Shown piece by piece: positions 1,844-64,000 of a stretch of DNA of 64,000 nucleotides. This stretch comes from a virus. A program made the translations under genes and the position numbers. The notes below the pieces were generated by a model. It was not told the DNA's origin and ran no database searches. It saw only the letters and a program-made list of their open reading frames with translations. How positions within the stretch are numbered: the stretch's first letter is position 1; every line of letters starts with the position of its first letter. The DNA lies in IMG/VR virus record IMGVR_UViG_3300040802_000094, positions 20,956 to 84,955 of that record; one strand, written 5' to 3'.

Positions 1844-1858
1844 CCGGGAGGGTTGACA

Positions 1859-2749: not shown

Positions 2750-2793
2750 CGACAAGACGGATTTCAAGTAGGGTATCCATAAAGGAGATTTTG

Positions 2794-3834: not shown

Positions 3835-3867
3835 AAAAACCACCCAAAGTCGGGTGGCCGTGGCTTT

Positions 3868-4290: not shown

Positions 4291-4448
4291 AATCTCCTTT
4301 GTGGATACCCCGCCTGAAATCTGCGATCCAGGCGGGGGTTATTGACATACTCTTTGATTCAGTCAACTCCATATCTGAAGTGCGAAACAGGTTATGGAAA
4401 TAATATATGGCGTAGTGTAATATTCGCAGTAAAATCAATTCATAGCAA

Positions 4449-4871
4449 ATGAAGGTAATTCATGCATCGCATCTTGGGGGCATAAAATCAGCCCCCGATG
4501 TTTTGTATATGCCCGAGTGTCCGGAAGGACCTATTGTTTCCTATTGGAGGTACAAGGCCCTTCGAGGTGAAAAGGGCAATCTCAAAGACATGATCGAGAA
4601 CCGTAAGGGGAGGGTCGTGTTCTTTACCCTGCCGGGGTGGGTCCCGTGGCCTTACGGCGACATTTACACGCTGGATCTTCCCGACGAACAAGAGTGTTTC
4701 GCCGGGATTGCGTGTTTGAAGCACGTTCGGACGACGTTAAAACGTGCCGAAGAAGCTATTTTTACTGCCAACCATCTCCATCCCCTTTTGTGGGACAACC
4801 TTCATCACTTGGAGATTGTCATTCCCTGCGAGTGGTTCGACAGCAAGGGAATAATATTCCCGAAGGAGTAG
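4449..4871 (+). CDS. Hypothetical protein
   Basis: 140-aa ORF after an AT-rich promoter-like region, followed by a terminator hairpin. Confidence 0.65.
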   Translation: MKVIHASHLGGIKSAPDVLYMPECPEGPIVSYWRYKALRGEKGNLKDMIENRKGRVVFFTLPGWVPWPYGDIYTLDLPDEQECFAGIACLKHVRTTLKRAEEAIFTANHLHPLLWDNLHHLEIVIPCEWFDSKGIIFPKE

Positions 4872-4900
4872 CGGCCATTAAGCTTAGGTCGGGTACTGAC

Positions 4901-4934
4901 AAAAGCCCCCATATCAATCGATATGGGGGCTTTT
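4901..4934. terminator. Bidirectional intrinsic terminator
   Basis: AAAAGCCCCCATATC-AATC-GATATGGGGGCTTTT. Confidence 0.75.
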
Positions 4935-5047
4935 GTCTTTAGGGGGGCGGTTCAAATTGAAGCGATCTTCCTTGTAAGTTGGATGGGTGCGGGACGATCG
5001 CGATCGCGCCGGAAAAGGAAGCCCCTGTGGTACGATTGGAGTCAATA

Positions 5048-45738: not shown

Positions 45739-45855
45739 CTCTGTCCTTTGATATACATAAATTCAGTCTACCATATATTCGGCACGCTAAAAATATTAAT
45801 TATATTGGCATACGTAATCATTGTATAATAATTGTATGCAATCAAAAGAAGTAAG

Positions 45856-47335: not shown

Positions 47336-48652
47336 ATGGAAGACTTATTAGTTTGTGAGTCCTGGAGCTTTCTGTTTTCAGCAAAAACGCTGGAAACAGC
47401 ATTCAGGGCAATTCCTTTCCCTACAGATGTACTGATAGGGAACGACAGTATCGCCTTTGCTAAAGGCGGTACTGTCGCTATTGCCCACGGGAGTGGGATG
47501 AGTCCAGCCACAATCTGGTCTCAACTCACGCAAGGAAGCCGCTTCCCTTTGCTCGCGTATTCCCAGTTTTTTGAAACGGGAATACGAGAGCAAGATGACT
47601 CCGAGACCCAAATCGACTGCTACTGGATCGATTCGGGTCTCGGGGAGGGACTGGTATTCCTTCCCCAAAATGAGAATCCTATCGTCGAGGAAGAAATCGC
47701 GAGCCTGGGAGTAGGCTCACAAAAGAAAATGCCGAACTTCTCCTCGATCAAAAAGCTAGGGAAACGGCTCCCTAGCGAAACAAAGGAAGTCGTACCCTTG
47801 TTGAGAAAGATCTGGTTTCCGGCCTCGTCGGAAACCTCAAGCGATTCAAGGGTGATTTTGTCGATAGGCAAAAAAATCACCCTCCATCTGGGATGGGGGA
47901 AAATCAGTATTCCTTGCTCCGACTGGAGGTCGGATCCAGAAGACCGGACAGAGGAATGGGAGGTTGTCGATCCCATTCCTCTGAGTTACCCCGAGATGGA
48001 GGAAGTTTTCGTTTTTGGCTACAATGTTGTGGCCTCGGGGGAAAATCTGACGGTCGCAAAGGAAGCGATAAAAACCCGTTCCTTTACGACAAAAGAATAT
48101 CTTTTTGAGTGGGAAGACTATCAGAGGTTCTCCCTCGAAAAGGTGTGGGAGGCGATCGCCGAACTCCCGGGAGACGAAGTCGAAGTCTCGTTTTCCTCCC
48201 GAGGCCACCTCCTCCTCACCTCGGAGGGGGAACAAAAAAAGATTCGATCGAATCTTCGACCGGGCAAGCCCTTTATCCTTCCGGAGGGCAAAGCCCGGAT
48301 CGACTCTATTGCAATAGAGTCGCTATCGGAATGCGATTTCGGAGAAAACCCGGAAATTGCATTCCACCCAGACAAAAGTCTGTATTTTCGGATCTTTGCC
48401 GAAAGCACAGACTTTGATGGAGAATTTTACCCCCCTCTGCCTGACAGCCCGTTCCAGATCTACGTAGATCGGGGACTCCTCGACGGAACGGGGGGGTCGC
48501 AAGCTTTGGTCTCGAAAATGGAGGCAAGGTTGGCGGATGCCCCGCCTTCGAGATGGAAAGAGAGCATCGAGATGGCTCTCGAAGGAAACCCCGAAGGCTG
48601 GAAGGATATACAGGATTTTTACTGCGATTGCAGACGCCTGCAATCGCAGTAA
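47336..48652 (+). CDS. Hypothetical protein, possible divergent beta-clamp-like fold
   Basis: VWEAIAELPGDEVEVSFSSRGHLLL, YPPLP; TGGTATAAT extended -10 upstream. Confidence 0.6.
   Translation: MEDLLVCESWSFLFSAKTLETAFRAIPFPTDVLIGNDSIAFAKGGTVAIAHGSGMSPATIWSQLTQGSRFPLLAYSQFFETGIREQDDSETQIDCYWIDSGLGEGLVFLPQNENPIVEEEIASLGVGSQKKMPNFSSIKKLGKRLPSETKEVVPLLRKIWFPASSETSSDSRVILSIGKKITLHLGWGKISIPCSDWRSDPEDRTEEWEVVDPIPLSYPEMEEVFVFGYNVVASGENLTVAKEAIKTRSFTTKEYLFEWEDYQRFSLEKVWEAIAELPGDEVEVSFSSRGHLLLTSEGEQKKIRSNLRPGKPFILPEGKARIDSIAIESLSECDFGENPEIAFHPDKSLYFRIFAESTDFDGEFYPPLPDSPFQIYVDRGLLDGTGGSQALVSKMEARLADAPPSRWKESIEMALEGNPEGWKDIQDFYCDCRRLQSQ
48619..48652. repeat. 34-bp near-perfect palindrome with core TTGCAGACGCCTGCAA (copy 3)
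   Basis: TTACTGCGATTGCAG-ACGC-CTGCAATCGCAGTAA. Confidence 0.85.
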
Positions 48653-48739
48653 CCGAAAGACACCACTGAAGTCAGTGGTGTCTTTTTTTGTACCGACTCT
48701 GCTAAGATCTGCCTTGGACTGAACAGCATAAATATCTTT

Positions 48740-48784
48740 AAGCCCGCACCCCGGCATTACTGGGGTGCGGGCTTTCTTTTTTTT
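48740..48784 (+). terminator. Terminator-like hairpin abutting the tape measure start codon
   Basis: AAGCCCGCACCCCGG-CATTA-CTGGGGTGCGGGCTTTCTTTTTTTTGT-ATG. Confidence 0.65.
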
Positions 48785-48786
48785 GT

Positions 48787-51700
48787 ATGGCGGATCAATA
48801 CGGTATCCAGGCAACTTTTCTCTTTGACGTCCCGACCGAAGCGTTTTCGACGATCGATCGGGTCATTTCTCAGTTGCAGGAACTAGATCGCGTCGTCCGC
48901 CAGATCGAAGGAGGGATGTCGGGCGGCGGTTTCGGCCAACAGCTCAAAAAGTCCATGGCTACCGCATCGAAGTCGGTGACAGGCGTGGGTCGAGCCGTCG
49001 GCACGATCGCGGACGAAGCCAAAGAAGCCAAGAAGCGACTGAAACCCCTCAAAGAAGAGTTTGCCGCGATCCGTGCGGAAGCGCGCAATGTCGAGTTCGG
49101 CGAAGACATTTTCGACGAGAAGAAGATAAAACAGGCGGAACGAGCGATCCGGCAGTACAAGAGATCCCTCGATCGCCTCGGAGAGTCCGTCCGGGGATCG
49201 AGTGCGCCGGAGCGAAAATTTTTAGCCGACCTGCAAAAACAGAAGCAGGTTATGGATTCGCGAGTAGAAATGCAGCGAACCCAGCGTACGGCGGCGCGTG
49301 CGTCGCAAAGGATAGGAGAATTCGCGGCGCTAGAAGGTGCCGGAAAGGCGATCGCCGCACCCCTTACCGCGATCGCCAAAGACGCGATCGCGGTATTTGC
49401 AGGTTTCGACGCGAAGATGGCCGGAGTCGCCGCAGTGAGCGGAGCGAAAGGCGAAGATCTGAAAGCGCTGCGATCGCTCGCCAAAAAAATGGGCGCTTCC
49501 ACCAAATTTTCAGCCTCCCAGGCGGCGGAAGCTCAATCTTTTCTAGGGATGGCCGGATTCAAGACCAATCAAATCCTGGAAGCGCTACCCGCAACGTTGG
49601 ACTTGGCTGCAGCCGGGAACTTGGATTTGGGGCAGGCTGCGGACATCGCCTCCAACGCTATTTCCGCCTTCGGCCTGAAAGCGGAAGAGACGCGCCGGGT
49701 TGCCGACGTGATGGCGAAGGTCGCGGCGAGTGCGAATACCAGCGTTTCCCAGCTCGGCGAAGCCTTCGCCTACGCCGCACCTGCGGCGCACGATTTTGGG
49801 ATGCGGATGGAGGAAGCGACTGCCCTGCTCGGCGTGGCGGGAAATATCGGCATTCAGGCTAGTGCGGCAGGGACTGCCCTACGGGCGGGGGCAATCGAGC
49901 TGACTAAAGCCGACAAGCAAAATATGCTGTTGGAAAAGCTCGGCGTAACGGTCGTAGACGCGGAGACAGGAGTCGCGCGGAATATTATCTCGATCGTCGG
50001 GGATATCCGCGATTCCATGCGGACTCGTTTTAGGGGAGAGAACTTCCTGGCAGAGATGGAGGCGATCCAGGAAAAAGTTAAAACCCAAGGCGGGAATATC
50101 GAAGAAGAGTTGAAAAAACTGGAGGAGAAATACCCGCAACAGGCCGAAGGCTTGACGACCCTCGCCAATGTATTCGGCAAAACGGCGGTGTCGTTTTGGA
50201 GCGGCCAGGTTTCTCAATATGAAGTTCTCGTTCACGACTCCCTCCAAGCCCTGGCGGCAACGGTGGATACGAACGCCCTCGAAGAGGTGATGTACGCTTC
50301 GATCGAAGGATTGCGCGAGGCCGAAGGCAAGGATCTGTTTGGGAAGCTTGCGACCCAGGCCGGATCCTACGAAGGAGCCGTCAAGCTTTTACAGGTCGGA
50401 CTGAGGGGACTGTCCGAGTCCGGAAGGGAGACGACGGGCGCCGCCGAGGCTATGGCGAAAATCATGAGCAACAACCTCGAAGGCGCTTTCGTTTCCCTCG
50501 GATCGGCGATCGAGGGATTCAAGATCGCTTATATCGAGCCAATTTCTCCTTTAATTGCGGGGGTCGTCAACGGAATTACGGAGATCGTCCGCTTCCTGAC
50601 GCAACTGCCCGCTCCAATTCGCTTTTTGATCGGGATTGCCGGAACCCTGGCCGTGACGCTCAGTGCCTTGGCGATCGCCGTCGGGGGAATGGGTATCGTT
50701 CTCTTCGGATTCTCGAACGCAATGGCGACGGCCAAGGCGGCGACGATCGCCCTCAACGGCGCCGCCATCCCCCTGACGGGATTCTTTGAGAAAGCGATGG
50801 GAGCCTGGGAAGGAACTTCACCGATCGAGACGGCGTTGAAAACGTCGAGTTTTGCCGTCGAAGACTTTCAGGAGGCCGCCACTCTCGCCTTCTCTGAGGT
50901 ATGGTCGGGACTGAAGACCTTCGCCGTGCGGACGAAAGCGGCGACCTTCGCAATGGCTCAGAATTTCTTGATGGTTTCGCGAGCTTTTGCGACGTCTCCC
51001 CTGGGTATCAGTATTATCTCGATAATCGCGCTCAACGAATTGATGCGGCGGGCAGTTCCCGGAGTCAACCTGTTCGCCGCCGCCGCCAGCGCCTTGGGGG
51101 GAGTTCTCGGTTTTGTTTCGGGGATCTTCCAAGGACTCGGGGACGTTGTAATGGAGGTAATCGGAGATAACCTGAAAGCCGTTTTTGCGGTATTTTCGAC
51201 TCCCCTGTTGCAAGCGGAAGACTCGATCGTTTCCTTTTTGTCAGCTTTTCGGGACTTGAGTACGGTTGGGCGAAAAATCGGGCGAGACTTGGGGCGAATC
51301 ATCCTCTCTCCATTCACGTTGCTGAAAAATACGATCTCCGGCGTCCTCGGGATCGGACTCGATTTCATCTCGGACAGGCTGAGCCTGATCGCGAGCGTCA
51401 TCAAATTGTTCACCGACTTCATGACGGGACGGATGGCGGGTCCCGAAGATTTCGTCAAGAATCGCTGGAATGTCGTCGGACAGATGGCAATGCACGTCCT
51501 CGCCTCGTGGCGAATTGCCGTCGGCATTATCCAAGGGCTGTGGAACTTTCTCGTTTCGATCGCCATTCGAGTGGGGGGCGCGATCGTCGGCGCCCTCAAT
51601 CACGGCGCCGCCGACGTCACCCGGATAGCCTGGCAGAAGACCGCGATCGCCGTCCTCGAATATATGAAACAGATGGCGATCGCGGCGTGGGAATTCGGCA

Positions 51701-54700
51701 GGCAAATTGCCATTACCCTTGCCGGACGCGCGGTCGGTTTCGCGATCGCGGCGTGGGACGCCCTTTCCGAGAAACTGAAAGTTGTTGCCGCGATCGGACG
51801 TAACGCGATCGCGGGGCTGGAGATGCCAGATTGGGTCGCTTCCGCGTGGACGGCGATCGCGACTTCCATTTCTTTAGTCGTGGAGTCGTTTAGATCGCTC
51901 AAGATTCCGGACTTGGAAGGAATTGATTTTTCGAGTCTGGGGTTTTCTCTTTCCGGAGTGGGGCTGAGTTCCAAGGCGTTCCTCGACTGGGTTGCCAATG
52001 CCGCTTCCGAAAAGTTTGCCCTCTTGGAAAGTGCGGCGATCTTCGGGTGGTCGCAAATGCAACGAGCCGGGTCGCTGACTGCGGATGCGTGGCGGTCGGT
52101 CGAGGCTACGCTATTTTCGGTGTGGCAAAACATCGCGAATTTTGCGTCTCGGATAGGAGAGGCGATTGTCGGCGCCCTCAATCACGGTGCCGCCGACGTC
52201 ACCCGAGCGGCCTGGCAAAATGCCGCGATCGCCGTCATCGGATACATGAAGCAGATGGCGATCGCGGCGTGGGATATGGCGATGGAAATCGTCGCGCCGA
52301 TCGCGACGATCGTCGTTACGGAGGTTCAAAAGTCCTGGGCGGAAATCGCTCGGAATTTTGGGGATATAGGGAAAGTCGTCGAATCCGCCCTGCCGGGAAT
52401 CGGGATTCCGACTTGGATTGTCAACGGATGGAAGGCGGTCTCCACGGCGATCGCCTCGGTCGGCGACACCCTGGCATCCCTCCGCGTCCCCAGCTTCGGA
52501 GGTCTCGATTTTTCTCGGGCCAGCGTTTCTTTGGCGGGAGTGGGACTGAGTTCCAACGCCGCCAAAGACGCGATCGCGGCAACGGCGTCGGAAGGCTTCG
52601 ACAAAATGCGCGGCGCCGCCATCTCAAGCTGGGAAGAAATGGATCGGGCGGCGGAAAGAACCGCTCAAGCGTGGAAGGATACCCGCGACTCCTTCCTGTC
52701 GGTTTGGCAGTTCGTCGCCGGATTCGCTTCTCGGATCGGAGGGGCGATCGTCAACGCCCTCAATCACGGCGCCGCCGACGTCACCGAGGCGGCATGGATT
52801 CGTGCTACTGCGGCGATCGTCGAAAGCATAAAAGGGATCGTAGGGACGGCGATCGCGGCGAGTTCGGCAATTGTCGGTTCGATGGCGATCGCCGTTTCGG
52901 AGCGACTCGGAGATGCCTGGACGTTCGCCTCGACGAAGGCAGGAGATCTGTCGGCTGTCGCGACTTCGGCTGTCGCGGCGATGGAAGTCCCCCAATGGAT
53001 TCTCGACGTATGGCACGCGATCGCCGACGCCATCTCTTCGGCGGGGCAGGCGTTGAAGGCGATCGAGATGCCCAATTTCGGGGGTCTCGACTTTTCCGCG
53101 ATCGGTTCGTCGCTACTGGCAAGCATTGCGGGACTTCGATCGAATCTCTCTCCGATAACTGCGGGAATCGCCCCGACTCCGTCCTCGACCCTCGTCGCCT
53201 GGGGGGCGAAGGATGTCATCGAGGAGGGCTGGGATCGTCCTCATCGAGCGATTGACGCGATCGAATCCCGAAAAGTCACCTACTCGAAAAACTTCAACCC
53301 CGAAACGGGAGCCATCATTATCCCGTCGAACCCTATCGGGGACAAGCTGTGGGAATTTCGGGAGAAGCTTTCCAACTTCCCCGCCTGGCTCGAAGGACAA
53401 AAAAGGCAACTGGAGGAAGAGAAACGGATCGAGGCGGAACGCAGGGAGGCCAATCGCTTGAAGCGAGAGATGGCCAAACAACAGGCGGCGGAAGAGCGGG
53501 CGAACTCTCCCAATTTTTTCCAAAAAATGTGGATTCGGGCGGTGGGGGCGATCGAAGTCAAAGCGCGGGCGGTGGGCGATCGCGTCTCGAACTTTATCTC
53601 CGAAGCGGCCTTGGGACTGTTCGGGCAGGGGACGATCGATTTCTGGACGACGCAATTCGACCTGTACGGACAGGCGATCGACAACGGAGTCGCCAAGTAT
53701 CGAGAAATTATCGACGTCGCGCAAGGGGTCGAGGGGGCGACTGCCTCCTGGCAACAGAAGTTGGTGGCGATCGTCCTCGCGATTAAAGAGATCTTTACGT
53801 CCCTCAACCAGGTTCGCAAAAACTTCATGGCGGCAGAAGAAAGCTTTATCGAGAAGTATTTCGAGCATTTCTCCGTTTCCGCCATGATGGCGTCCGTCGC
53901 CGCTTCGATGCCGATGGGGTTGCTCGGCGCGAAGCTGCCGGGACTGAAGATTCCGGGAGGACTCGACAAGATGGCCAGCGAGACCGTCCGCAAGGTCGGC
54001 ATGGGAGAATTCTCCCCGATCTTCGAGGCGATCGAGTCTCCCGGCATCCCTACGGGACTCATGCGAATGCTGCCGGGCATCGTCGCGATCGCCACCTCCC
54101 AAGGATTCTTCGACGGACTGAATCAAGGGGTCTCTCACTTCCTGGAAAATAGCGAGATCCACGCGAAGGCATTTGCAAATAATTTCTTCAACGCCCTCGG
54201 TCCCGGACTGTCCCAGGTCCTCGACCAACAATTCGGGCTAACCCGGGAAAAGGTAGACACCTTCCTCACGGATCTGTTCCAAGGGGGGCTGTTTACCTGG
54301 AAGGAAGGGGGAGAAGGCTGGGAGGCCGAGTACTCGGTTATGACGAGCGGCTTGCTGGAATACTTCCAGGGGGTCGGCGAAACCCTCAACGACGTATCGG
54401 AAGGATTCAAGCCCATTTTCCACGCTTTTGCCACGTGGAAGCCTATCCCGTTCCTGCCCCCGATCGCGGAACTGCTCGTAGTCGAAAGCTTTATTGCGGG
54501 CATCGGAGATTTGCTGCAATCTCCGGCGCTGAGGGGGATTGGGAAATTCGTCCTCGTCACCCTTCCCGGCTCGATCCTCGCCGTAGTCGGAGCGATCTCC
54601 GGCATGGTGCTGGCGGCGATCGCCCTGATCGGGAAATTGGCCATTTCTGCCCTCAAGGCGCTCGGAATCCTCAAGGATCAAACGAAGGAAGCCGGGGGGG

Positions 54701-57700
54701 TTTTCGTTCGGGCGATCGGAGTCGCCTTCACTTGGATAGAAAAACTGATGGCACGAATCCCCTACGTCGGCAAGCATCTCGCAAAGGCGATGCGATGGTC
54801 GTTCGACCTGTTGGGGAGGGTGTTCGACTACCTCGGGCAGAAAATGCCGATCGTTTTCGGCCAAGTCCAAAAATATGGCGGCATCGTCTGGAACGTTTTT
54901 CAGACGTCGATTTTTCCCGTCATCAAAAACTTGACCGACGAGATGTTCTCCGGGGCGAGATACTTGTTCGACAAAGGATTCCTCCCTTTGTTTAAGTTTT
55001 TGCAGCTCATTCTCGGCCCCAAGCTGTGGTTGCTGTACATCCGAACGAAAGGACTGAAGGGGGTCACGAAAGGAATCAATCCGATCGATATCGGCATTAC
55101 CCTCGGAGAGGGAATTATCAACGGCATCAGCCATGTCCTGACGGGGAGACCCGCGAATTTGATTCGCACGCTGATCGGGGCGATCGTCGGCGAAGCCTTC
55201 CCGATGGACGTCCTCCAGAGCAAGATGCGAAGCGCCAACATGATTTTGGCAACCGTGCAGCAGCAAAAGCAATTTATGCGTACGGGGAAAGTGCCAAAGA
55301 TCGAAGGAATTACCGTTCAGGTTCTCAACACCTTGCGACTGATCTCCCCCCTCACGCAGATCGCGGCGCGGCTGACTCTGACTCTGTCCATGTGGTACAG
55401 CCTACTCAAGCCAATTACTCCGGGGATGCTCTTGGCGATCCGCCACTGGGAAGAAATTCACTACAAGATTTCGGTAATCTCTCCGGCGTTGGGGATCCTT
55501 CGCTTTATCTTCGTCGATACGATCGACTTGGCGATCGCGGCAGGCAAGGCATTTTACCAAGCCTTCCAGTTTATCGGCTGGGCGGTCGGCGGTGCCACGA
55601 CCCAAATTGTCAAAGGGATCCAACTGGTCATTTGGGGAATGACGATCGCGGCGCGGGCGGCGACACTCGCGATCCTCGTCCCGATCCGCGCCCTCCTGGA
55701 GGGACTGCGACTGGGGATGCTGGTGTTCCGCGAGCTGACAAAAACGGTCGGGTCGGTCGTGCTGGATATCAAGAACAACCTAGACGCGATCGTCAAGGAT
55801 ATCGGAGAAGGATTTTGGACCTTCTTTAAAGAAGGGGATATTCGCCCGTTTGCGAAGGCGATTTTCACTGCGATATTTCGGATCGGCAAGATCTCCTTAG
55901 ATATGGCGTTCCTCTATTTCGGGATCCTTCGCCGCGAATTTATCATTTGGGCTTTCATTACGGGGAAAGCGCTGTTCTCGACTTTGGTCAAAGAAGGCCC
56001 CACGATCGTCTGGAGGACGCTCAAGTTTATCGTCAGCTTGACTTTCGAGGCGATCTCTTGGGTCGGGAGACAGATCGCGTCCGCGATCGATCGCGCGTTC
56101 GCGGCGATCCGAAACCGCATCGTCGCTCCGACGATCGCCGCCGTCCTCCACTTCCACAAAACACTTACGGATACGATTCAAGCATTGCAGGGAGCGAGCC
56201 GACCCGCCGCCGCCTTGCAGGCCATCATCCTCGAAACGCTCGCCGCCGTCGCCGCCGTCGCCCTGTTATTTCCGAAGTACGGCTTGCTCTCAAAAACGGG
56301 AGCTTACGCCTGGGCGCAATCGCTATTCGCGCAAAAAATGAGCCTCCTGACCTTGCTCAAGATCGGGGGGCCGATCGGGTTTTTTGCCTTTGCCGCCTAC
56401 GAAGCCCTGACTGGATTCAAGGAGATCGACGCCGTCCTCAACAAGATCGGCCTGAGCATCAAAGACGTCGAGAACCTGTTTCTTCGCCTGCTCAACAACT
56501 TGACGGCAAAACCGGACTTCGGCCTTGCCGAAAGGATCGGCGGATTTTTGAAAGGCGCCATTCAGATTTTCCCCATCGTCCTGGGAGCGCTCACCGTCTT
56601 CGGGGCGCTGATCAAGAAGGATATTTTCTTCGGAGTCAAACTCGTTTTTACGGCGATCGGGAAGACAATCAACGCCGTTTCCCATTTGGTATTTCTGTTC
56701 CGATCGATCAAGGAATTGATCTTCTCGATCTCCCTCAAACCTCAAGTCCTCAAAGGGATTCACGTCGCGCGATCGCTGACCGGGACTTACGGCAGCGAGG
56801 AAGAGAAGCAGACCCGAGGCGCGGAAGCGGCGATGGCCAAAGACGCACTGAAGCTCCAAAAAATAGTGCGTAGAAACCAAGACCGACTCGACACGCAGAA
56901 GATAATCCAGCAAGCAAAACAGCATCCCGAACTGTTTGGAGACCTCACCCGACGGGAGCGAGTTCGCAAGGGAGGGTTCCTCGGCTTCGGGGCTTCCTTG
57001 AGAGAAGAAACGGTCTTGTCGAACAAGGGTCACCAACTGCTGGCCAAAATGCGCCAAGGCGCCTACGAAACGGGATCGGGAGAATTTGCGGATGCTTCGC
57101 TAATCGGCCACGCGAGCAAAATTGGCGGCACGCTGATCGGCCTCGCCCCCGAACGATTGAGGGAGCTGGCGAAAGAAGCTTCCCCGGATCTCGAAGACCT
57201 CTCGAACGCACTCGAACGGATGAAATTGCAAAAAGTTTCAAAATCCGAAGTGCAGAAAATGTACGTCGCCAACTTGGTGGGATTCGGGGGGCAGGGGAGA
57301 TCGGGGGAAACCCTCAACAAAGAACAGATCGTATCCAGGCTGGTGCAAGGCGAGAAGTCGCCACTCTTCGTTCGGGAAGGACAAAAGTTGTCGCGCAAAA
57401 AGTTTTTGAGGTCTCAAGGGGTCGATTTGGGCGACGAACCGTATGGCGAACACGGTCCTTATACGGGGATTCCCGAAGCAACGATCGAAAAAACCGAGCC
57501 TTACGAGCGACTTTACGCTTATTTAAAAAATGCGAGCGGGATCCCCCTACAGTACGAATCGACTTTTTCGGCGATTCAGGATCAAATACAGCAGGGAGGC
57601 GCGATCTCCAACTGGAAATTCCAAACGCAAGATACAATCCTCGACATGATCTCCGACCCGCAGGAGAAAGGAAAGATCGTCGGGGCGATCGATCGCGCAC

Positions 57701-60700
57701 TCGCTCGTATCAAAGAAGCGAACTTATACCAAAGTTCGCCGACGCTCATCCCTGCGGGAGATGAATCGACTGGTATTGCAATGGGCTTCCTCGCGGAAGA
57801 GGTGTCGAAAGCGTACAAAGATCTCTCGATCGAGGAGATGGGGCGGATGACTCCCGCTCACTTCGAGAATCTCAAGAAACAAGTCGAGCAAACGATCGCG
57901 CAGGATGTCACTCAAGCTACAAATCGGGCTTTTTCCTCGCACAAAGTCGATCCGGAATTCATCGCGATCGTCAAAAGCTCCAAGGTAAAGCCCGGGATTC
58001 TGGGGATTTTCGACCCCGTATTCAAGACGCTCAAAAAATCTTTAGGTGGGGCGCTAGACTCCGTCATCGATACCGTCCCCTTCCTCGCCCAAATCGTCCG
58101 AGGAAAAGAAGCTCGCTTGAACGCCCAAAGGGCAGATTCGATCAACGCCCGTATCAAGGCACTTCGAGACGAAAAGAGGATAGGGAGAAAAGACGTCGAT
58201 CGCATCCGCGCCTTGCAGCGCGAAGCCAATTTATCCAAGGATCGATCACGGCAGTCCCGCTCCTATCGCGGTATCGCCCAAATCCTCGAAGTCGATCCCG
58301 CAGCGATCGCCAATCCCTCCTTATCCTTGGAGGACATGACCTACGTCAAAGAGCGTCGCAACGAGATGATCCGCGAATTTCGCAGGCAGCAGGGCAGCAT
58401 CCAGACCGCCTTCACCCACGAAGACCTGACGATCCCGTTCGACGACGAGAAACTTTCGGCGATCGACAAGCTGATCGAAACGGGGTACTTCGATCCGAAG
58501 GCGTCTTACGTTACCAAAAAAGTCGGCAACAAATCCATCTCGGAAAAGTGGCTGACCAGTCTCTCCAAGGCATCCAGCCTCCGGGAATCGGAATTAATCG
58601 AGATGTTTTCCGCAGAGGCGATTCTGAAATCGAGACAGAGAAGCCTGAAAGAGCAGATCTTGATTTTCACGGGACTCAAAAAAAGCGAAATCAACTACGG
58701 CAGACAACTCAAAGAACTGACCAACAACCTCCAGCGACTGCAACGCCTCCACGAAACCAAGCAACTGAAAGCGAGGGAGCGGGAGCGAACCTTACTCCTC
58801 CAACGCGAGAAGGCATTTTCGGAGCATTTCAGAAAGCTCGGAATCGGGGAACAGTCCTTCTTTGCAGGACTCGAACGAATTCAAAGAGAGCGACTGCTCG
58901 ACTTTAAGCGAACCGGAAACCTCGAAAAGGCGGTTCCCAAAGGGGAACGGCAGCAGTTCAATCAAATCATCCAGCAGTTGAGCGGACACGGCACCGCCAA
59001 AAGCTTCATGGCAGCCCTGGCGGAGAAAAAAGCTACGGCAAGCCCCGAAGTCCTCAAAAGTATCAAGGAGATCGAAGAGCAGTTCGCCGCGATCGATGTC
59101 AACCCGCAGATATTTCAAAAGCAGAAGAATCGTAACAGACTGATTGAAACCCTGCGCCAAGAAATCTCCGACGCAGGGCTGACGACGGGGCCACAGCAAA
59201 ATCTGCAGGCAGCACAGCAGACAATAGCAAGAATAGTTACAGGTTGGGGCGACGTCAGCGAGCAAAAAGAATACTCGCGGCTGTTTTATCAATTCGCGGT
59301 CAAGGGAAAAGAAACGATGGCGATGGCCGACGCCGAACTGGCGGAAATGGCCAAGAACTTGAAACTCGTCGATAACTTGGCCGACGAAGCGGATGCGGCG
59401 GACGCAATGAGGGAATTCGGAACTCGCAGTCTGAGGTCGTATCCGAAAACCTTTGCGGATAGCTTGGTCGATTTCCAGAAATCGGTACAAAAGATCTTCA
59501 TCACTGCCGACCTGAGCGTCAAGCGCATCTTCAAGGAGATGTCAAACGTCAACATGCTCGGGTTTCACCCCCTCCGAAAAGTCTCGGACTTAATCCGCCA
59601 CCAGTTTTACAGTCCGATCCACAATTTATTCGTCGGGGTCAATCGCCAATTCGAGAGCGCGATCGCCAAGATCGGACAGCTCAATATCGAATCCAAGCGA
59701 AAAACAAAAGACTTCTTCGTCAATTTGCCCGGCGTCAAGCAAGTACTGGACGTGCGGAAGAGTCACGAGCAGGAAGCGGGCAGGAGCCTCGAAGCCTTAA
59801 TCAAAAAGGTGGGGGTCGGCAGCTTGGGCGAGTTCGAGCGTAACTTCACCAACGCCCTAAAGGATCCGAATGTCGGCGACAAGAAATTCAAGTCGCGGCA
59901 GGTGAGCGAGATACTGAGATCGATGTTTTTGTCGGGAGACAGGGGGATCGCGGAAGAAATTAGAGGATCCTCCGACGCGGAAGTCAGTGGATCTCTAGAC
60001 GCGGTCGTGAAAGCTTTTGCCCGAACTCTCGAAATCAGCGAAACGGAAGCGCGGCAATTGTTTGGCAAAGACGAGAATACCAAGCTGCTGACAAAGCCAC
60101 TCAAAAGTCTCGGACGAAAATACCTCGAAGCCGTCACGGTCGAGCCGATCAAATGGCTTTTCCATGCGATTCCCAAAATTCCCGGACAGATTATGGCGGC
60201 TCCGTCGAAAATCAAGGCGGGAATCGAAGAGATCAAAGCAATCCCCGATCGCACCACGTCGTGGATGACGGGAATCGCGGACTCGATTTCGTCCGCCTTC
60301 CGAAAGCTGTCGGAAAACGTCAACAAATCCGTCAGTAAGGTGCAAGGGGCGACTCGGATTAGTTGGGGCGATCGCCTCAAAAACTTTTTTATCGGAATCG
60401 GCGACTTTTTCCTATTCGGCAAAACGGCTTCGACGCTGAAGACACGACTCTCCCGACTCCAGAAGATCAACAAAAAGGTCGAAACGAGTACCCGAGCCGC
60501 ACTCGTTGACGGAAAAATCCAGAAAATCCCGCGCTTTCAACCACGGAGGGCAGAGCAGTATCGACAAATCCCGCCGACATACGCGCTTAAAAGTGGACTG
60601 GATCCCCGTTCCGTCTCTCCGGAGGTATTGCGCGCGCTGCAACCTCAACCCACCGCGATCGCGCCCGGACTAGCCCCTCCATCCCCGGGAGGGGCGATCG

Positions 60701-63700
60701 CGCCGGGATTCAAGGTCGTCGCCCCGATGGAAACGATCGGCCTCGCGAAGGGAAGTGTCCTTTCGGGGGGGGAGGTGGTCAAAGGTCGCTACATGCGATT
60801 GTTCGAGGAACAGCAACGGGTCGGCGAACGACTCAAGGCCGCACGCGAGTCGTCGGCGGCGTGGAAAGTCGGAGTTGCCGCGAAGTCCTTGGCGGGAATT
60901 CAAACTGCATGGAAGCAGGAGGCGGCGGGAATCTCCGATCGCGCCCAAATCGAGGCGATCGCCGCGAAATACAAAGAGCAAATGGCGCGAGCGCTCGAAC
61001 CCCTCGACGGAAAAATGCAGGCGATCGCCCGCGTCAGCGCCACGGTTTTGCGAGTGTCGATCGCCGCAGGTCGGGGCATGGGGCGAGTAGCCAAAACCTT
61101 ATTCGGCATGGTTCGAGACCGCGTTCGCGGCATCGGCGAAGTCGTCAACCTCTCCAAGTTTCAATTGCTGCTCGCCAAGCAACGGCAAAAACTTGAAGGA
61201 TTGAAGCACAAAAGGGAAGGCGAACTGCAACTGCGGCGAAGCGGGCGCAACATCACTCCTTTGATCGAAATGGCATCCGCCGCGATCGCGAAACTCGAAC
61301 AGGATATCGAGGGGACGCAAAAGACGATCGCCCGTCTGAGCGAGCAGATGTCGGCAAGACAAAGGGCAGTAGCGACGTTTTTCTCTCAATCGGCGGCGAA
61401 GGTTCGCAGCGCGTGGAGATTCACGACCGGATTCGTCGGAAGCCTGTGGAATACCCTCGTAGGCTGGGCAGGCAAGATCGGTCCGAAGATCCGATCCTTT
61501 CTCAATCACGGCGCCGCCACGGCGACCAAGATCGCCTGGGACGACACGACGGGCGCCGTCAAGCAAGATATGGCCTCGATCGAAGCGCAAGCCAAAAAGT
61601 CGGGGCGGGCGACGGGCGCGGCGATGGTCAACTCCGCCGAACAAGTCAAGAGCAGCCAGTCGAAACTGCTACAGCATTCGATCGGCTTCGCCAATCGAGT
61701 GGGGGGTGCCATCTCCCACGTCGGGAGGGCGGGTTTCGCGGTTGGTTCGGCGATTTCTGCCGTATCTTTCGGCGCCCAACAGGCGGCTTCTTCGTTGGGA
61801 TCCATGGGGATTATTTCGGAGGAGTCGGCAGCGCGATTTTACAAACTTTCCGAAATAACGATGATTTTTGGGGGTATCGGCAGCGCGATCGTCCCGATCT
61901 TCGGAGCGCTGGGGGCGTCGCTGACTGCGTTTGGAAGCCTTGCGGCAGTCGTTTTTTCTCCCTTATCGCTGACGATCGTCGCGGTCGTTGCGGGCTTGCT
62001 CCTACTCAATAAAGCGGTCGAATCGCTGTTTGGCATCAACGTCTTAGGAACGGCGCTCGACAGTGCGATTGCGCCGTTCGGGAGTCAGATCGACTGGGTG
62101 AAAGAAAAATGGGCGTCGCTACAAAACTGGATCGGCGGCATTTGGGCGAGCAAATTCGGCGAAGTCATGCGTCCCTATACGAGACAGATCGTTGGAGCGT
62201 GGCAGTGGGCATCCTCGGCAATCCAAAGCAGCCTGGGTTGGCTGATCCGTCCGGCGACCAGGATCGCGGAAATGTTGGTCAACCTGCTCAACCATAACCC
62301 TACCGAGCGGATTCCGAATGCTTGGGAACATGCCGTCGAACGAATCAAGGACGCCCTGTTCGGGCTTCCGGTCATCGGGGCGCTCGTCGGTGGCATACTT
62401 CGGCATAAACTCGGATTTCTGACGGCGATTCCCCTGACGATCGCCTTCAGGGGGGCGTTGTGGGGACTCGCCAAGACTTTCGTCGGACTCGGAGCCAAAG
62501 CCCTCCCCGTCGTCGGGTGGATTTTTGCCATTTTTAGTGGGATTCGGCTTCTCAATGCCGCGATCGCCAAACTGACGGGGTACGACGCACTGGGTGCGTT
62601 GGGGGCGAAGATGGCTCCTGCGCTGACGGCGATCTCGGAGAGAATTGCGCGATTGAGGTACGACGTCGTCGCGACGTTCGGAGGGATAGCCAGGCAGGTC
62701 GAAAATGCTTTGGGTTGGATTCCGGCTTTCGCCGAAAATGTGAAAAGCGTGCTGTCGAAACTATTTTCGGGGGCGGTACTCGGTGCGGGAGTTACGGCGA
62801 TCGCCTTTGGGGTGAGTCAGCTCTTCAGGCACGCCAATTTGCTGATCGGGTTGATTTCCAAGCTGGGTTTTATCGTCCCCCTCGTCTTCAATCCCTTTGT
62901 TGGAGCCGTGACGGGTATCGTCACGGCGGTAGAGTTGGCCAACGCCGCCATTCGTCACTTTTTCGGAGCCGACTTGCTCCAAGGAATCCACGCCCGGATC
63001 GGCAGCGCCATCGAGCGCGCCGCGATCGCGCCCGTCGAATGGCTTCGCGCGGCTTGGAGTACGACCGTCGAAGCGATCGCGGCCAAAATTGTGGGGCTGG
63101 CGGACTTTATCGAAATCAAAGTTGGAGGCGTCCTCGAATTTCTGTTCTCTCCCGGACGGTGGGTTGCGGGGATTGCCGGAGCGATCGGAGGAGCATTGGG
63201 CTTTGGGGGCGGCAGTGCGGGGGAAGGCGAGGCGCAAAACCACGGAGCAACCGCTTCAGGAATTGCAGACGTCTACAATTTTGCCGCCGCCCGCGTCGTG
63301 AGGGCTTGGTTTGCCACCTTCGACGGCATCAGGCAGGGAATGATGTGGTTGGTGCAACCCGCTCTCGACGTCGCCACGATGTTGATCGACGCGCTCAACC
63401 ACAACCCTACCGAACGCATCCCCGAAGCGTGGAACGGGGCGATCGCCAACATCAAGGAATCGATTTTGGGGCTGCCGTTGATCGGCGGGGCGGTGGGCTT
63501 GGCGATGGGCGAATCCTTGAAGCCCCCGCAGTGGCTCGGAGAAGCTTGGGGTTCGGTCGCGGGATTCTTCGATAAAAAAGAGCAGCCCGAGGTTTCGATT
63601 CCCGAGCCGATAAAAGCGGTAACCGAAGTGGTGACGGAACCCAAGCCCATCGACAGCAAGCCCTTTTGGAGCAATTGGTTCGGCGGGGCGCAGGCCGCGA

Positions 63701-64000
63701 TCGCCGAGAAGGGCGGCTGGTTTGGGGACGCGATCGCGGGGTTCTTCGGCGGCACGAAAGAAGCGAGTAGCCTTCCCGTCCCCGAAATCCCTGCCGTCTC
63801 CTTCGACTGGAGCGATCGCCTGCGAGAGCAGCAGGCGAAGGCGGGCAGTCCGGAGCTGGCTAATTTCTACCAACGTCTAATTGACAGTGGCGCGAGCGAT
63901 CGCCTCTCTAGCGCCGACCTCGCCAACTTGAGCGTGGGCAACTTTACGGAAGTGTCGGGGGTGCGGCAGCAACTGCAAGCCTACCAATCCGAGATCGAAC
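48787..64000 (+). CDS. Giant tail tape measure protein (TP901-family core), 3'-truncated, >5,070 aa
   Basis: Frame +1 from ATG 48787 (MADQYGIQATF); core FDAKMAGVAAVSGA...TKFSASQAAEAQSFLGMAGF...LPATLDLAAAG...ANTSVSQLGEAF...GIQASAAGTALR; Ala/Ile/Trp amphipathic repeats. No stop was seen in spot checks and the track lists no closed frame +1 ORF here. Confidence 0.9.
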   Translation, partial: MADQYGIQATFLFDVPTEAFSTIDRVISQLQELDRVVRQIEGGMSGGGFGQQLKKSMATASKSVTGVGRAVGTIADEAKEAKKRLKPLKEEFAAIRAEARNVEFGEDIFDEKKIKQAERAIRQYKRSLDRLGESVRGSSAPERKFLADLQKQKQVMDSRVEMQRTQRTAARASQRIGEFAALEGAGKAIAAPLTAIAKDAIAVFAGFDAKMAGVAAVSGAKGEDLKALRSLAKKMGASTKFSASQAAEAQSFLGMAGFKTNQILEALPATLDLAAAGNLDLGQAADIASNAISAFGLKAEETRRVADVMAKVAASANTSVSQLGEAFAYAAPAAHDFGMRMEEATALLGVAGNIGIQASAAGTALRAGAIELTKADKQNMLLEKLGVTVVDAETGVARNIISIVGDIRDSMRTRFRGENFLAEMEAIQEKVKTQGGNIEEELKKLEEKYPQQAEGLTTLANVFGKTAVSFWSGQVSQYEVLVHDSLQALAATVDTNALEEVMYASIEGLREAEGKDLFGKLATQAGSYEGAVKLLQVGLRGLSESGRETTGAAEAMAKIMSNNLEGAFVSLGSAIEGFKIAYIEPISPLIAGVVNGITEIVRFLTQLPAPIRFLIGIAGTLAVTLSALAIAVGGMGIVLFGFSNAMATAKAATIALNGAAIPLTGFFEKAMGAWEGTSPIETALKTSSFAVEDFQEAATLAFSEVWSGLKTFAVRTKAATFAMAQNFLMVSRAFATSPLGISIISIIALNELMRRAVPGVNLFAAAASALGGVLGFVSGIFQGLGDVVMEVIGDNLKAVFAVFSTPLLQAEDSIVSFLSAFRDLSTVGRKIGRDLGRIILSPFTLLKNTISGVLGIGLDFISDRLSLIASVIKLFTDFMTGRMAGPEDFVKNRWNVVGQMAMHVLASWRIAVGIIQGLWNFLVSIAIRVGGAIVGALNHGAADVTRIAWQKTAIAVLEYMKQMAIAAWEFGRQIAITLAGRAVGFAIAAWDALSEKLKVVAAIGRNAIAGLEMPDWVASAWTAIATSISLVVESFRSLKIPDLEGIDFSSLGFSLSGVGLSSKAFLDWVANAASEKFALLESAAIFGWSQMQRAGSLTADAWRSVEATLFSVWQNIANFASRIGEAIVGALNHGAADVTRAAWQNAAIAVIGYMKQMAIAAWDMAMEIVAPIATIVVTEVQKSWAEIARNFGDIGKVVESALPGIGIPTWIVNGWKAVSTAIASVGDTLASLRVPSFGGLDFSRASVSLAGVGLSSNAAKDAIAATASEGFDKMRGAAISSWEEMDRAAERTAQAWKDTRDSFLSVWQFVAGFASRIGGAIVNALNHGAADVTEAAWIRATAAIVESIKGIVGTAIAASSAIVGSMAIAVSERLGDAWTFASTKAGDLSAVATSAVAAMEVPQWILDVWHAIADAISSAGQALKAIEMPNFGGLDFSAIGSSLLASIAGLRSNLSPITAGIAPTPSSTLVAWGAKDVIEEGWDRPHRAIDAIESRKVTYSKNFNPETGAIIIPSNPIGDKLWEFREKLSNFPAWLEGQKRQLEEEKRIEAERREANRLKREMAKQQAAEERANSPNFFQKMWIRAVGAIEVKARAVGDRVSNFISEAALGLFGQGTIDFWTTQFDLYGQAIDNGVAKYREIIDVAQGVEGATASWQQKLVAIVLAIKEIFTSLNQVRKNFMAAEESFIEKYFEHFSVSAMMASVAASMPMGLLGAKLPGLKIPGGLDKMASETVRKVGMGEFSPIFEAIESPGIPTGLMRMLPGIVAIATSQGFFDGLNQGVSHFLENSEIHAKAFANNFFNALGPGLSQVLDQQFGLTREKVDTFLTDLFQGGLFTWKEGGEGWEAEYSVMTSGLLEYFQGVGETLNDVSEGFKPIFHAFATWKPIPFLPPIAELLVVESFIAGIGDLLQSPALRGIGKFVLVTLPGSILAVVGAISGMVLAAIALIGKLAISALKALGILKDQTKEAGGVFVRAIGVAFTWIEKLMARIPYVGKHLAKAMRWSFDLLGRVFDYLGQKMPIVFGQVQKYGGIVWNVFQTSIFPVIKNLTDEMFSGARYLFDKGFLPLFKFLQLILGPKLWLLYIRTKGLKGVTKGINPIDIGITLGEGIINGISHVLTGRPANLIRTLIGAIVGEAFPMDVLQSKMRSANMILATVQQQKQFMRTGKVPKIEGITVQVLNTLRLISPLTQIAARLTLTLSMWYSLLKPITPGMLLAIRHWEEIHYKISVISPALGILRFIFVDTIDLAIAAGKAFYQAFQFIGWAVGGATTQIVKGIQLVIWGMTIAARAATLAILVPIRALLEGLRLGMLVFRELTKTVGSVVLDIKNNLDAIVKDIGEGFWTFFKEGDIRPFAKAIFTAIFRIGKISLDMAFLYFGILRREFIIWAFITGKALFSTLVKEGPTIVWRTLKFIVSLTFEAISWVGRQIASAIDRAFAAIRNRIVAPTIAAVLHFHKTLTDTIQALQGASRPAAALQAIILETLAAVAAVALLFPKYGLLSKTGAYAWAQSLFAQKMSLLTLLKIGGPIGFFAFAAYEALTGFKEIDAVLNKIGLSIKDVENLFLRLLNNLTAKPDFGLAERIGGFLKGAIQIFPIVLGALTVFGALIKKDIFFGVKLVFTAIGKTINAVSHLVFLFRSIKELIFSISLKPQVLKGIHVARSLTGTYGSEEEKQTRGAEAAMAKDALKLQKIVRRNQDRLDTQKIIQQAKQHPELFGDLTRRERVRKGGFLGFGASLREETVLSNKGHQLLAKMRQGAYETGSGEFADASLIGHASKIGGTLIGLAPERLRELAKEASPDLEDLSNALERMKLQKVSKSEVQKMYVANLVGFGGQGRSGETLNKEQIVSRLVQGEKSPLFVREGQKLSRKKFLRSQGVDLGDEPYGEHGPYTGIPEATIEKTEPYERLYAYLKNASGIPLQYESTFSAIQDQIQQGGAISNWKFQTQDTILDMISDPQEKGKIVGAIDRALARIKEANLYQSSPTLIPAGDESTGIAMGFLAEEVSKAYKDLSIEEMGRMTPAHFENLKKQVEQTIAQDVTQATNRAFSSHKVDPEFIAIVKSSKVKPGILGIFDPVFKTLKKSLGGALDSVIDTVPFLAQIVRGKEARLNAQRADSINARIKALRDEKRIGRKDVDRIRALQREANLSKDRSRQSRSYRGIAQILEVDPAAIANPSLSLEDMTYVKERRNEMIREFRRQQGSIQTAFTHEDLTIPFDDEKLSAIDKLIETGYFDPKASYVTKKVGNKSISEKWLTSLSKASSLRESELIEMFSAEAILKSRQRSLKEQILIFTGLKKSEINYGRQLKELTNNLQRLQRLHETKQLKARERERTLLLQREKAFSEHFRKLGIGEQSFFAGLERIQRERLLDFKRTGNLEKAVPKGERQQFNQIIQQLSGHGTAKSFMAALAEKKATASPEVLKSIKEIEEQFAAIDVNPQIFQKQKNRNRLIETLRQEISDAGLTTGPQQNLQAAQQTIARIVTGWGDVSEQKEYSRLFYQFAVKGKETMAMADAELAEMAKNLKLVDNLADEADAADAMREFGTRSLRSYPKTFADSLVDFQKSVQKIFITADLSVKRIFKEMSNVNMLGFHPLRKVSDLIRHQFYSPIHNLFVGVNRQFESAIAKIGQLNIESKRKTKDFFVNLPGVKQVLDVRKSHEQEAGRSLEALIKKVGVGSLGEFERNFTNALKDPNVGDKKFKSRQVSEILRSMFLSGDRGIAEEIRGSSDAEVSGSLDAVVKAFARTLEISETEARQLFGKDENTKLLTKPLKSLGRKYLEAVTVEPIKWLFHAIPKIPGQIMAAPSKIKAGIEEIKAIPDRTTSWMTGIADSISSAFRKLSENVNKSVSKVQGATRISWGDRLKNFFIGIGDFFLFGKTASTLKTRLSRLQKINKKVETSTRAALVDGKIQKIPRFQPRRAEQYRQIPPTYALKSGLDPRSVSPEVLRALQPQPTAIAPGLAPPSPGGAIAPGFKVVAPMETIGLAKGSVLSGGEVVKGRYMRLFEEQQRVGERLKAARESSAAWKVGVAAKSLAGIQTAWKQEAAGISDRAQIEAIAAKYKEQMARALEPLDGKMQAIARVSATVLRVSIAAGRGMGRVAKTLFGMVRDRVRGIGEVVNLSKFQLLLAKQRQKLEGLKHKREGELQLRRSGRNITPLIEMASAAIAKLEQDIEGTQKTIARLSEQMSARQRAVATFFSQSAAKVRSAWRFTTGFVGSLWNTLVGWAGKIGPKIRSFLNHGAATATKIAWDDTTGAVKQDMASIEAQAKKSGRATGAAMVNSAEQVKSSQSKLLQHSIGFANRVGGAISHVGRAGFAVGSAISAVSFGAQQAASSLGSMGIISEESAARFYKLSEITMIFGGIGSAIVPIFGALGASLTAFGSLAAVVFSPLSLTIVAVVAGLLLLNKAVESLFGINVLGTALDSAIAPFGSQIDWVKEKWASLQNWIGGIWASKFGEVMRPYTRQIVGAWQWASSAIQSSLGWLIRPATRIAEMLVNLLNHNPTERIPNAWEHAVERIKDALFGLPVIGALVGGILRHKLGFLTAIPLTIAFRGALWGLAKTFVGLGAKALPVVGWIFAIFSGIRLLNAAIAKLTGYDALGALGAKMAPALTAISERIARLRYDVVATFGGIARQVENALGWIPAFAENVKSVLSKLFSGAVLGAGVTAIAFGVSQLFRHANLLIGLISKLGFIVPLVFNPFVGAVTGIVTAVELANAAIRHFFGADLLQGIHARIGSAIERAAIAPVEWLRAAWSTTVEAIAAKIVGLADFIEIKVGGVLEFLFSPGRWVAGIAGAIGGALGFGGGSAGEGEAQNHGATASGIADVYNFAAARVVRAWFATFDGIRQGMMWLVQPALDVATMLIDALNHNPTERIPEAWNGAIANIKESILGLPLIGGAVGLAMGESLKPPQWLGEAWGSVAGFFDKKEQPEVSIPEPIKAVTEVVTEPKPIDSKPFWSNWFGGAQAAIAEKGGWFGDAIAGFFGGTKEASSLPVPEIPAVSFDWSDRLREQQAKAGSPELANFYQRLIDSGASDRLSSADLANLSVGNFTEVSGVRQQLQAYQSEIE
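63261..63280. repeat. Palindrome copy 4 (one mismatch), inside the tape measure gene
   Basis: AATTGCAGACGTCTACAATT. Confidence 0.7.

Follow-up and report, generated by a model that had tools for sequence, protein, structure and literature searches.

The 64,000-nucleotide window analyzed here covers bases 20956 to 84955 of the IMG/VR virus record IMGVR_UViG_3300040802_000094, which is 84,955 bp long and has a CheckV completeness of 45%. At its end, a giant open reading frame (ORF) encodes the first 5,071 residues of a protein of 6,706 residues. By its homologies, this protein is identified with high confidence as a tail tape measure protein. The explanation that we favor, with a probability of about 0.6, is that the giant ORF is the genuine tape measure protein of a cyanophage of a contractile-tailed lineage, and that it acts over its whole length as a ruler in which a charged block serves as a helical spacer. 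If every residue counts toward tail length, as we infer, the tail would reach a micrometre; our confidence in a micrometre tail is moderate. Judged from its relatives, which appear to infect filamentous cyanobacteria, the phage of the window is probably an uncultured cyanophage of ~190 kb.

A Tape Measure-Type Protein of 6,706 Residues

An earlier note on this DNA had described an ORF in frame +1 that stays open to the end of the window. In an ORF listing that permitted open ends, the frame ran from the ATG at 48787 to 63999, and no stop was present in the 5,071 codons. The end of the window coincides with the end of the contig. Thus, the contig stops before the ORF does, and for this reason the ORF would be missed by any ORF track that discards frames running off the end. 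The translation was then extended, as the earlier note had proposed. A database protein (P0002) is identical to the window ORF across residues 1-5071 and ends at residue 6,706. Another protein of 6,706 residues (P0014) is 99.96% identical and is encoded on a 99-kb contig, and two C-terminal fragments are present on further contigs. Residues are numbered according to the full-length protein, of which the window covers 1-5071. The features are summarized in Table 1.

Both ends of the protein resemble known tape measures. The TP901-type core that the earlier note had placed near the N-terminus was recovered by Pfam PF10145, with a score of 147 bits against a cut-off of 33.2. More than 20 PHROG tape-measure families matched residues ~30-1290, and PHROG 1533 (E 3.6e-87), 1272, 167, 58 and 991 aligned up to residue ~1,290. 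The tblastn matches to tape measures of cultured phages were confined to residues ~6-640. Beyond residue ~1,290, neither a PHROG tape-measure match nor a tblastn match to such proteins of GenBank phages was found. At the other end of the protein, residues ~6566-6615 matched 8zdo_S (mycobacteriophage Douge gp16; E 2.9e-12) and 8rk3_A (E 1.7e-4), and a C-terminal motif of the GGxxxGPGxGxxDxIPAxLSxGEFV type is kept in all of the giant proteins aligned.

Between these ends, the hydropathy profile shows a block layout that is common to all members of the family. The hydrophobic blocks are broken by a charged linker at residues ~1500-1600. The three tandem repeats are 30-44% identical to one another in self-BLAST, and their motifs start at positions 937, 1131 and 1325. 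Three further LNH[GN]...AW motifs were found in the best-conserved segment, at residues 4239, 4501 and 4870, and the family alignment has invariant columns in this segment. The charged hydrophilic block, which had been expected at about 56750-61400, was found in nearly the same place. In 100-residue windows from ~2650 to ~4300, its Kyte-Doolittle hydropathy is -0.1 to -1.04 and the content of K, R, D and E is 19-40%. The protein contains 17 strongly hydrophobic 19-mers and no cysteine in 6,706 residues. In a motif scan of the same 6,706 residues, DxDxD, HExxH and Walker A motifs were not detected.

Table 1. Features of the giant tape measure gene, its protein and other genes of the window
Feature	Residues	Nucleotides	Strand	Basis or remark
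Tape measure gene, codons 1-5071 of 6,706	1-5071	48787..63999	+	ATG start, truncated by contig end
N-terminus, charged, helical-type	1-200
PhageMin_Tail / TP901-type core	230-412	49474..50022	+	Pfam PF10145, E 7.8e-43
Hydrophobic Ala/Gly/aromatic-rich blocks	~600-2650	50584..56736	+	hydropathy profile
Three tandem ~195-residue repeats, each with LNHGAADVT...AW motif	857-1453	51355..53145	+	self-BLAST
Charged hydrophilic block	~2651-4300	56737..61686	+	hydropathy and charge profile; predicted helical, module that varies most in length across the family
Best-conserved segment of the family	~4200-4950	61384..63636	+	28-46% identity with each giant compared
Alternating hydrophilic and hydrophobic stretches	4950-6500
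GGLVTGPGSGTGDRIPALLSNGEFV motif	~6566-6615	past window end		matches tape measure proteins of the solved virions 8zdo and 8rk3
Baseplate wedge protein, gp6 / P2 gpJ / Mu gp47 type, 408 residues		36866..38092	-	phrog_6, E 9e-8
Sliding-clamp-like ORF, 474 residues, two genes upstream of the tape measure gene		45832-47256	+	Atlas TM score 0.59/0.73 to beta-clamp clusters
Orphan ORF, 438 residues, directly upstream of the tape measure gene		47336-48652	+	no PHROG, Pfam or Atlas lead; Atlas model pLDDT (predicted local distance difference test) 0.32

A Family of Giant Tape Measures in Phages Linked to Filamentous Cyanobacteria

The protein belongs to a collinear family with end-to-end relatives of 2,674-8,170 residues, which were found by word-indexed and pattern searches in IMG/VR contigs and cyanobacterial metagenome-assembled genomes (MAGs). 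Most of the members are encoded on phage contigs of ~190-245 kb that were binned with filamentous cyanobacteria, and several of the IMG/VR contigs are 188-200 kb long. One of the records (G005) has direct terminal repeats and a completeness rating of 100%. The MAGs with members are those of filamentous cyanobacteria: Microcoleus, Stenomitos, Allocoleopsis, Crinalium, a 'Richelia' bin and others. The ORF lengths form a continuum of 2,674, 3,686, 3,991, 4,498, ~4,860, 5,848, 6,043, ~6,340, 6,706 (the phage of the window), at least 7,200, 7,615 and 8,060 residues, with a further member of 8,170 residues in Nostoc. All members share one block layout and have 0-3 cysteines each, across 2,700-8,170 residues. 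The central charged block is present in the members of at least ~4,500 residues and absent from the three shortest ones (2,674-3,991 residues).

The Nostoc member (WP_179070682.1) is encoded on the circular 223-kb pC052_F 'plasmid' of the cultured strain Nostoc sp. C052 (NZ_CP040278.1). It aligns collinearly with the 6,706-residue protein, beginning at residue 3 and reaching the C-terminus, with 25-33% identity. RefSeq and IMG label the relatives as tape measures automatically. In the literature searches made, no paper describing giant cyanophage tape measures or WP_179070682.1 was found, and a tape measure goes unmentioned in a preprint on 239-kb Microcoleus myophages.

Three observations on individual relatives were made. 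The 8,060-residue member (8,062 residues from stop to stop) was found in an Acetobacteraceae MAG (L007), a non-cyanobacterial bin. An IMG/VR contig (L016) has an ORF of exactly this length with an identical hydropathy profile, and the Acetobacteraceae assignment is probably a mis-binning. The Stenomitos MAG JTS-RE299 contains two members on different contigs (L004 and L006), one of 4,498 residues and one of 2,674 residues; the short one lacks the charged block. In a Crinalium-binned relative, an 1,831-residue DarB-like methyltransferase-helicase of the antirestriction type (L010:418-5913, + strand) is encoded ~4 kb upstream of the tape measure gene.

Evidence for a Contractile Tail

The earlier note had referred to contractile-type baseplate genes, and a wedge protein of the gp6/J type was indeed found in the window. 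Its structural model, which has a low global confidence (pLDDT 49), was used for Foldseek searches. The significant matches in the PDB were nearly all baseplate proteins of contractile systems. The top match was cyanophage A-1(L) (8kea_d, E 1.4e-12), and phi812, phiCD508, Mu, diffocin, AFP and T4 gp6 were also matched. The matches in BFVD are named Baseplate J-like, and the protein is kept in five relatives at 38-47% identity. Pfam Baseplate_J did not match the wedge protein, and neither this J-like protein nor the capsid protein had a tblastn match in GenBank phages.

A sheath homologue of ~1,000 residues was detected in the relatives G005-G009 and in Nostoc pC052_F. It was traced with the PHROG sheath profile from Nostoc phage A1, which led to a ~1,000-residue ORF in G009 and from there to its relatives. 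The resulting profile matched sheaths in the PDB (9ezm_A, 6.2e-13; 8bky_A, 1.3e-9; 8bl4_V, 1.3e-8). Pfam PF04984 and PF17482 and phrog_165 miss the sheath of this lineage entirely, and their empty results are false negatives. The Pfam sheath, Baseplate_J, gp25 and tube models gave nothing usable in the window phage's own record or in the relatives, and a siphovirus-like reading based on this was dropped after the sheath homologue had been found. A sheath match in the Stenomitos MAG is on another contig than the tape measure gene and was not used.

Since the sheath homologue is present in all of the relatives checked and the wedge protein accompanies it, the gene content indicates a contractile-tailed lineage. 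The phage of the window is linked to these relatives by several structural proteins. Compared with the complete relative G005, its record shows identities of 49% for the capsid protein, 46% for the protease, 46% for the wedge protein and 36% for the portal-like protein, in addition to others, and the gene order is scrambled.

The tube was sought next to the sheath. The candidate is the next ORF of at least 80 residues on the same strand after the sheath gene, and it is 189-193 residues long. PF06841 (gp19-type tube) gave a sole, weak match of 15 bits, to the 189-residue ORF directly downstream of the sheath gene in G008. A profile of the tube candidates matched nothing in the PDB, and the A-1 tube as a query gave no match. 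PF04965 (gp25/GPW-type wedge initiator) had no match in the window phage's own record or in the relatives.

At ~1,000 residues, the sheath of the lineage (L040:1498-4485(-), L043:1453-4455(-), L046) is about twice the usual size. It carries four copies of a VTGTGT.F..ELK.GD-type repeat, which also matches PHROGs of tail fibres and, in the PDB, a distal tail protein. In the relative G006, which is 100% complete, the sheath homologue (C1:56940-59981, L041) contains one in-frame TAA.

Ruler Spacer or Cargo in the Charged Block

For the giant ORF, the earlier note had offered two readings, an exceptionally long tail or a polyprotein carrying ejected cargo domains, and had proposed HHpred and AlphaFold analyses of 56750-61400. 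No domain was recognized in this region by Pfam, PHROG or the PDB. Residues 1300-6706 gave no match in these three collections, and the same result was obtained with the relatives of 8,060 and 7,615 residues. In 50,697 GenBank phage records, residues 1501-4500 and the last 1,854 residues had no tblastn match. PGC7_Stella, PAS_8, Apolipoprotein and HBL, which appeared as leads for cargo domains when residues 1200-6706 were searched against Pfam, PHROG and the PDB, were rejected as sub-threshold noise.

The structure prediction was carried out for residues 2651-3850 with a 4-sequence alignment. The AlphaFold model contained 68% helix, no strands of three or more residues and no confident globular domain, at a mean pLDDT of 36.8. 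Hydrophobic periodicity at 3.5-3.67 residues was observed in the block with z = 10.8 against shuffled sequence, and z was 8.6-17.9 over all regions of the protein.

The evolution of the block was analyzed in two ways. Within the Microcoleus-type clade, the block is 28-60% identical (72% at the first window), and the terminal regions are mostly 70-97% identical. Despite this low identity, gaps in the block amount to 0-5%. The alignments thus indicate that the length of the block is held while its sequence drifts. Across the whole family, total length correlates with hydrophilic content (r = 0.88), with a slope of 0.58 hydrophilic residues per added residue, and hydrophilic sequence makes up most of the growth in length. 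Taken together, the lack of a recognized enzyme domain, the predicted helicity, the conserved block length and the growth by hydrophilic sequence favor a whole-length ruler over folded cargo. The long-tail reading of the earlier note is the better supported one, also because no other gene with a TP901-type core was found in the relatives scanned and because the protein has features of a tape measure at both ends. The polyprotein reading is less probable, with no domain, catalytic motif or predicted strand found, although the fold model is of low confidence and P23-45 shows that an enzyme can be part of a tape measure.

A combination of ruler and passenger should also be considered, and we regard it as rather unlikely. 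According to this idea, the tail length is determined by the two ends and the hydrophobic blocks, and the charged block, which folds back or stays compact within the lumen or the neck, leaves the tail markedly shorter than 1 µm. After ejection, the block would, for example, span the thick wall and sheath of filamentous cyanobacteria as a long conduit or an anchor, or work as a factor directed at the host, in parallel to the virion RNA polymerase fused to the tape measure of P23-45. There are precedents for passengers, since the N-terminal part of P23-45 gp96 carries an active RNA polymerase (PMC10770324) and phage G gp183 carries lysin domains. However, the published figures imply that both phages keep the usual ratio of length per residue with the enzyme parts counted. 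The composition of the block is sharply unlike that of the rest of the protein, and short members of the family dispense with it, but no domain, motif or structural match to it was obtained. No beta structure is predicted either, although the fold model is too poor to rule out small domains. Finally, the block evolves fast, as host-interacting modules do, whereas the near-absence of indels at low identity is more readily explained by a constraint on length than by an effector that evolves fast.

Gene Neighbourhood and the Search for Another Ruler

As far as the profile searches reach, no ruler candidate other than the giant ORF was found in the lineage. PF10145 matched only inside the giant ORF in G000 and G007-G009, the window phage's own record being only 45% complete. 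In G005 and G006, PF10145 matched nowhere, and their giant ORFs are homologous by alignment. The tape measure gene of the relatives is tens of kb away from the sheath and tube genes. In the window, the sliding-clamp-like fold at 45832-47256 places a replication gene where tail genes would be expected. Downstream of the tape measure gene in one relative, small ORFs and a tail-fibre-like gene were found. Gene position, as it appears from these records, is typical of the family and does not define a tape measure protein.

These positions bear on another explanation, in which the giant is an ejected or internal protein derived from a tape measure and the tail length is set by an ordinary tape measure that escaped detection. 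The distance from the sheath and tube genes in the relatives and the replication genes beside it in the window would agree with such a protein. In addition, Pfam and PHROG missed the sheath of the lineage, so other tail genes could also escape. Nevertheless, this explanation is improbable: a second PF10145 match was not found in the six records, both end features of a tape measure are retained, and tail-fibre-like genes lie downstream of the giant in a relative. Moreover, in G005 no other tape measure protein follows in the sheath-tube operon, where no gene is called between the sheath and the candidate tube, and the operon ends after a 344-residue ORF.

Mechanism and Predicted Tail Length

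If the whole-length ruler is correct, a few copies of the protein would be stretched out within the tail tube as mainly alpha-helical chains, similar to what is seen in other long-tailed phages. The C-terminus would be located at the baseplate hub, with the TP901-type core of the N-terminus at the end near the head. Polymerization of the tube, with the sheath around it, would halt where the protein ends. The charged block of ~1,650 residues would be an amphipathic-helical spacer and not a folded cargo enzyme, and the family may change the length of the ruler mainly by expanding or shrinking such hydrophilic sequence. After contraction of the sheath, the tape measure protein would be ejected ahead of the DNA, and its long hydrophobic blocks would enter the host envelope.

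The tail length was calculated with two contractile tails as the calibration. T4 (92.5 nm, 590 residues) and phage G (450 nm, 2,893 residues) both give 0.156 nm per residue (PMC8570332). At this value, the 5,071 residues in the window predict a tail of ~0.79 µm and the full protein of 6,706 residues a tail of ~1.05 µm. The shortest member of the family (2,674 residues) would correspond to ~0.42 µm, and the Nostoc pC052_F member (8,170 residues) to ~1.27 µm. The earlier note had arrived at more than 750 nm by the ruler rule. This figure was too low because the full protein has 6,706 residues. We consider it a little short of an even chance that contractile tails of ~0.7-1.3 µm exist in this family, two to three times as long as that of phage G (450 nm) and beyond the record siphovirus tail of P74-26, and that the block is an evolvable length cassette that tunes the tail length. 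Long tails might be driven, for instance, by the thick sheaths and walls of the filamentous cyanobacterial hosts.

Several points weigh against the whole-length ruler. No particle of the family has been seen, and the length rule is extrapolated more than twofold past the longest contractile tail that we found described. A 1-µm sheath of ~1,000-residue subunits would be very costly. Sheath and tube genes were not found in the window phage's own 85-kb record (45% complete), and the presumed contractility of this phage itself rests on the wedge protein and the relatives. The expected gene order, with the tube and frameshifted chaperones before the tape measure gene and the baseplate genes after it, was not observed, and no frameshifted chaperone pair was recognizable upstream. 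The charged block is almost an orphan, with two homologues among 1.84 billion representatives (HMMER), which leaves profile methods without material. With a pLDDT of 36.8, the finding of all helix and no domain is weak.

Tail length is one of the few dimensions of a virion that can be read from a gene. Checks of the ruler rule extend to ~5,000 residues for siphoviruses and to ~2,900 residues for contractile tails. With tape measure proteins of 4,500-8,200 residues in sheath-bearing phages, either micrometre contractile machines work or the rule fails. The former would raise questions of assembly fidelity, stiffness and the energetics of contraction. If the rule fails, most of the protein would serve another role during the infection of thick-walled, sheathed cyanobacteria. 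The cultured Nostoc strain with a relative makes the question testable. The phages appear to be tied to mat- and crust-forming cyanobacteria, whose phage biology is almost unknown.

Comparison with Known Tape Measure Proteins

The tape measure protein gp96 of P23-45 has 5,002 residues, and the P74-26 tail of almost 1 µm is described as longer than that of any other known virus (PMC10770324, PMC10034513). Like gp96 of these Thermus phages, the giant protein is a single-ORF tape measure of thousands of residues with zero cysteines, and it implies a micrometre-scale tail. P23-45 gp96 is cysteine-free despite containing an active enzyme. The two proteins differ in several respects. There is no detectable sequence similarity between them, and the 6,706-residue protein is 34% longer, in a family that reaches 8,170 residues. 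gp96 is mostly hydrophilic and contains an RNA polymerase of the DFDGD two-barrel type as well as a metallopeptidase domain; in contrast, the giant protein has neither motif and has long hydrophobic blocks. A fused RNA polymerase of the P23-45 type, with two double-psi beta-barrels and DxDxD, was not found, as no DxDxD is present in the 6,706 residues and no strands are present in the model of the block. Furthermore, P23-45 and P74-26 are siphoviruses, whereas phages of the giant lineage encode a sheath along with a wedge protein of the gp6/J type. The giant protein differs from gp96 in sequence, domain content, hydrophobic blocks and the contractile-tail context, and functionally it is a tape measure.

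Phage G gp183 and T4 gp29 are likewise tape measures in a contractile-tail setting. In phage G, the genes have the classical order of sheath, frameshifted chaperones and tape measure protein, and gp183 ends in lysin domains. In contrast, the giant gene stands apart from the sheath and tube genes, no lysin domain was found in its product, and this protein is 2.3 times longer than gp183.

The Nostoc protein WP_179070682.1, annotated as 'phage tail tape measure protein' automatically only, has the same block layout and zero cysteines, and pC052_F also encodes the ~1,000-residue sheath homologue. However, it is 1,464 residues longer, and its charged block has no detectable similarity to that of the 6,706-residue protein.

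Ordinary TP901-1-type tape measures have roughly 600-2,000 residues. Those with PF10145 (PHROG 1533, 4704, 1272 and others) are homologous to the N-terminal ~640-1,290 residues of the giant protein, whereas the remaining ~5,400 residues are unmatched in the 50,697 GenBank phage records.

Integrity of the Gene

The giant ORF is a genuine, intact gene and no artefact. In Logan contigs from four runs (two samples of one microbial mat metagenome study), 48000-64000 was covered without a deviating letter, an indel or a joint, and a single contig (53943-63182) crosses the entire charged block. One sample contributed three runs, with an even depth of ~8x over the gene; the depth in the fourth run is lower. 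No RNA data set was listed among those containing the region. Neither an in-frame stop nor an assembly artefact, which the earlier note had named as grounds for refutation, was seen, and the contigs of the four runs are identical at every letter. The continuation past the contig end was not found in viral contigs by an exact-pattern scan, and protein-guided scans of metagenome and viral contigs with residues 4072-5071 as the query found no close relative.

That the gene is an assembly artefact, a chimera or a decayed pseudogene that merely stays open is therefore scarcely credible: the contig does terminate inside the gene and the Logan contigs break at internal repeats near 51.6-53.6 kb, but several contigs encode the same 6,706-residue protein, intact ORFs of 2.7-8.2k codons are present in over 20 collinear relatives from other samples as well as in a finished, circular replicon of Nostoc, and a 15-kb open frame would not be expected by chance at 52-62% GC.

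Within the tandem-repeat region, a 31-base word at 51591-51621 has about twice the local depth and is a contig break point in all three runs of one sample. Elsewhere in the window, a group II intron-type reverse transcriptase with an HNH domain is encoded at 5757-7553 on the + strand (phrog_1423, E 1e-95), and a 55%-identical copy is present in G005.

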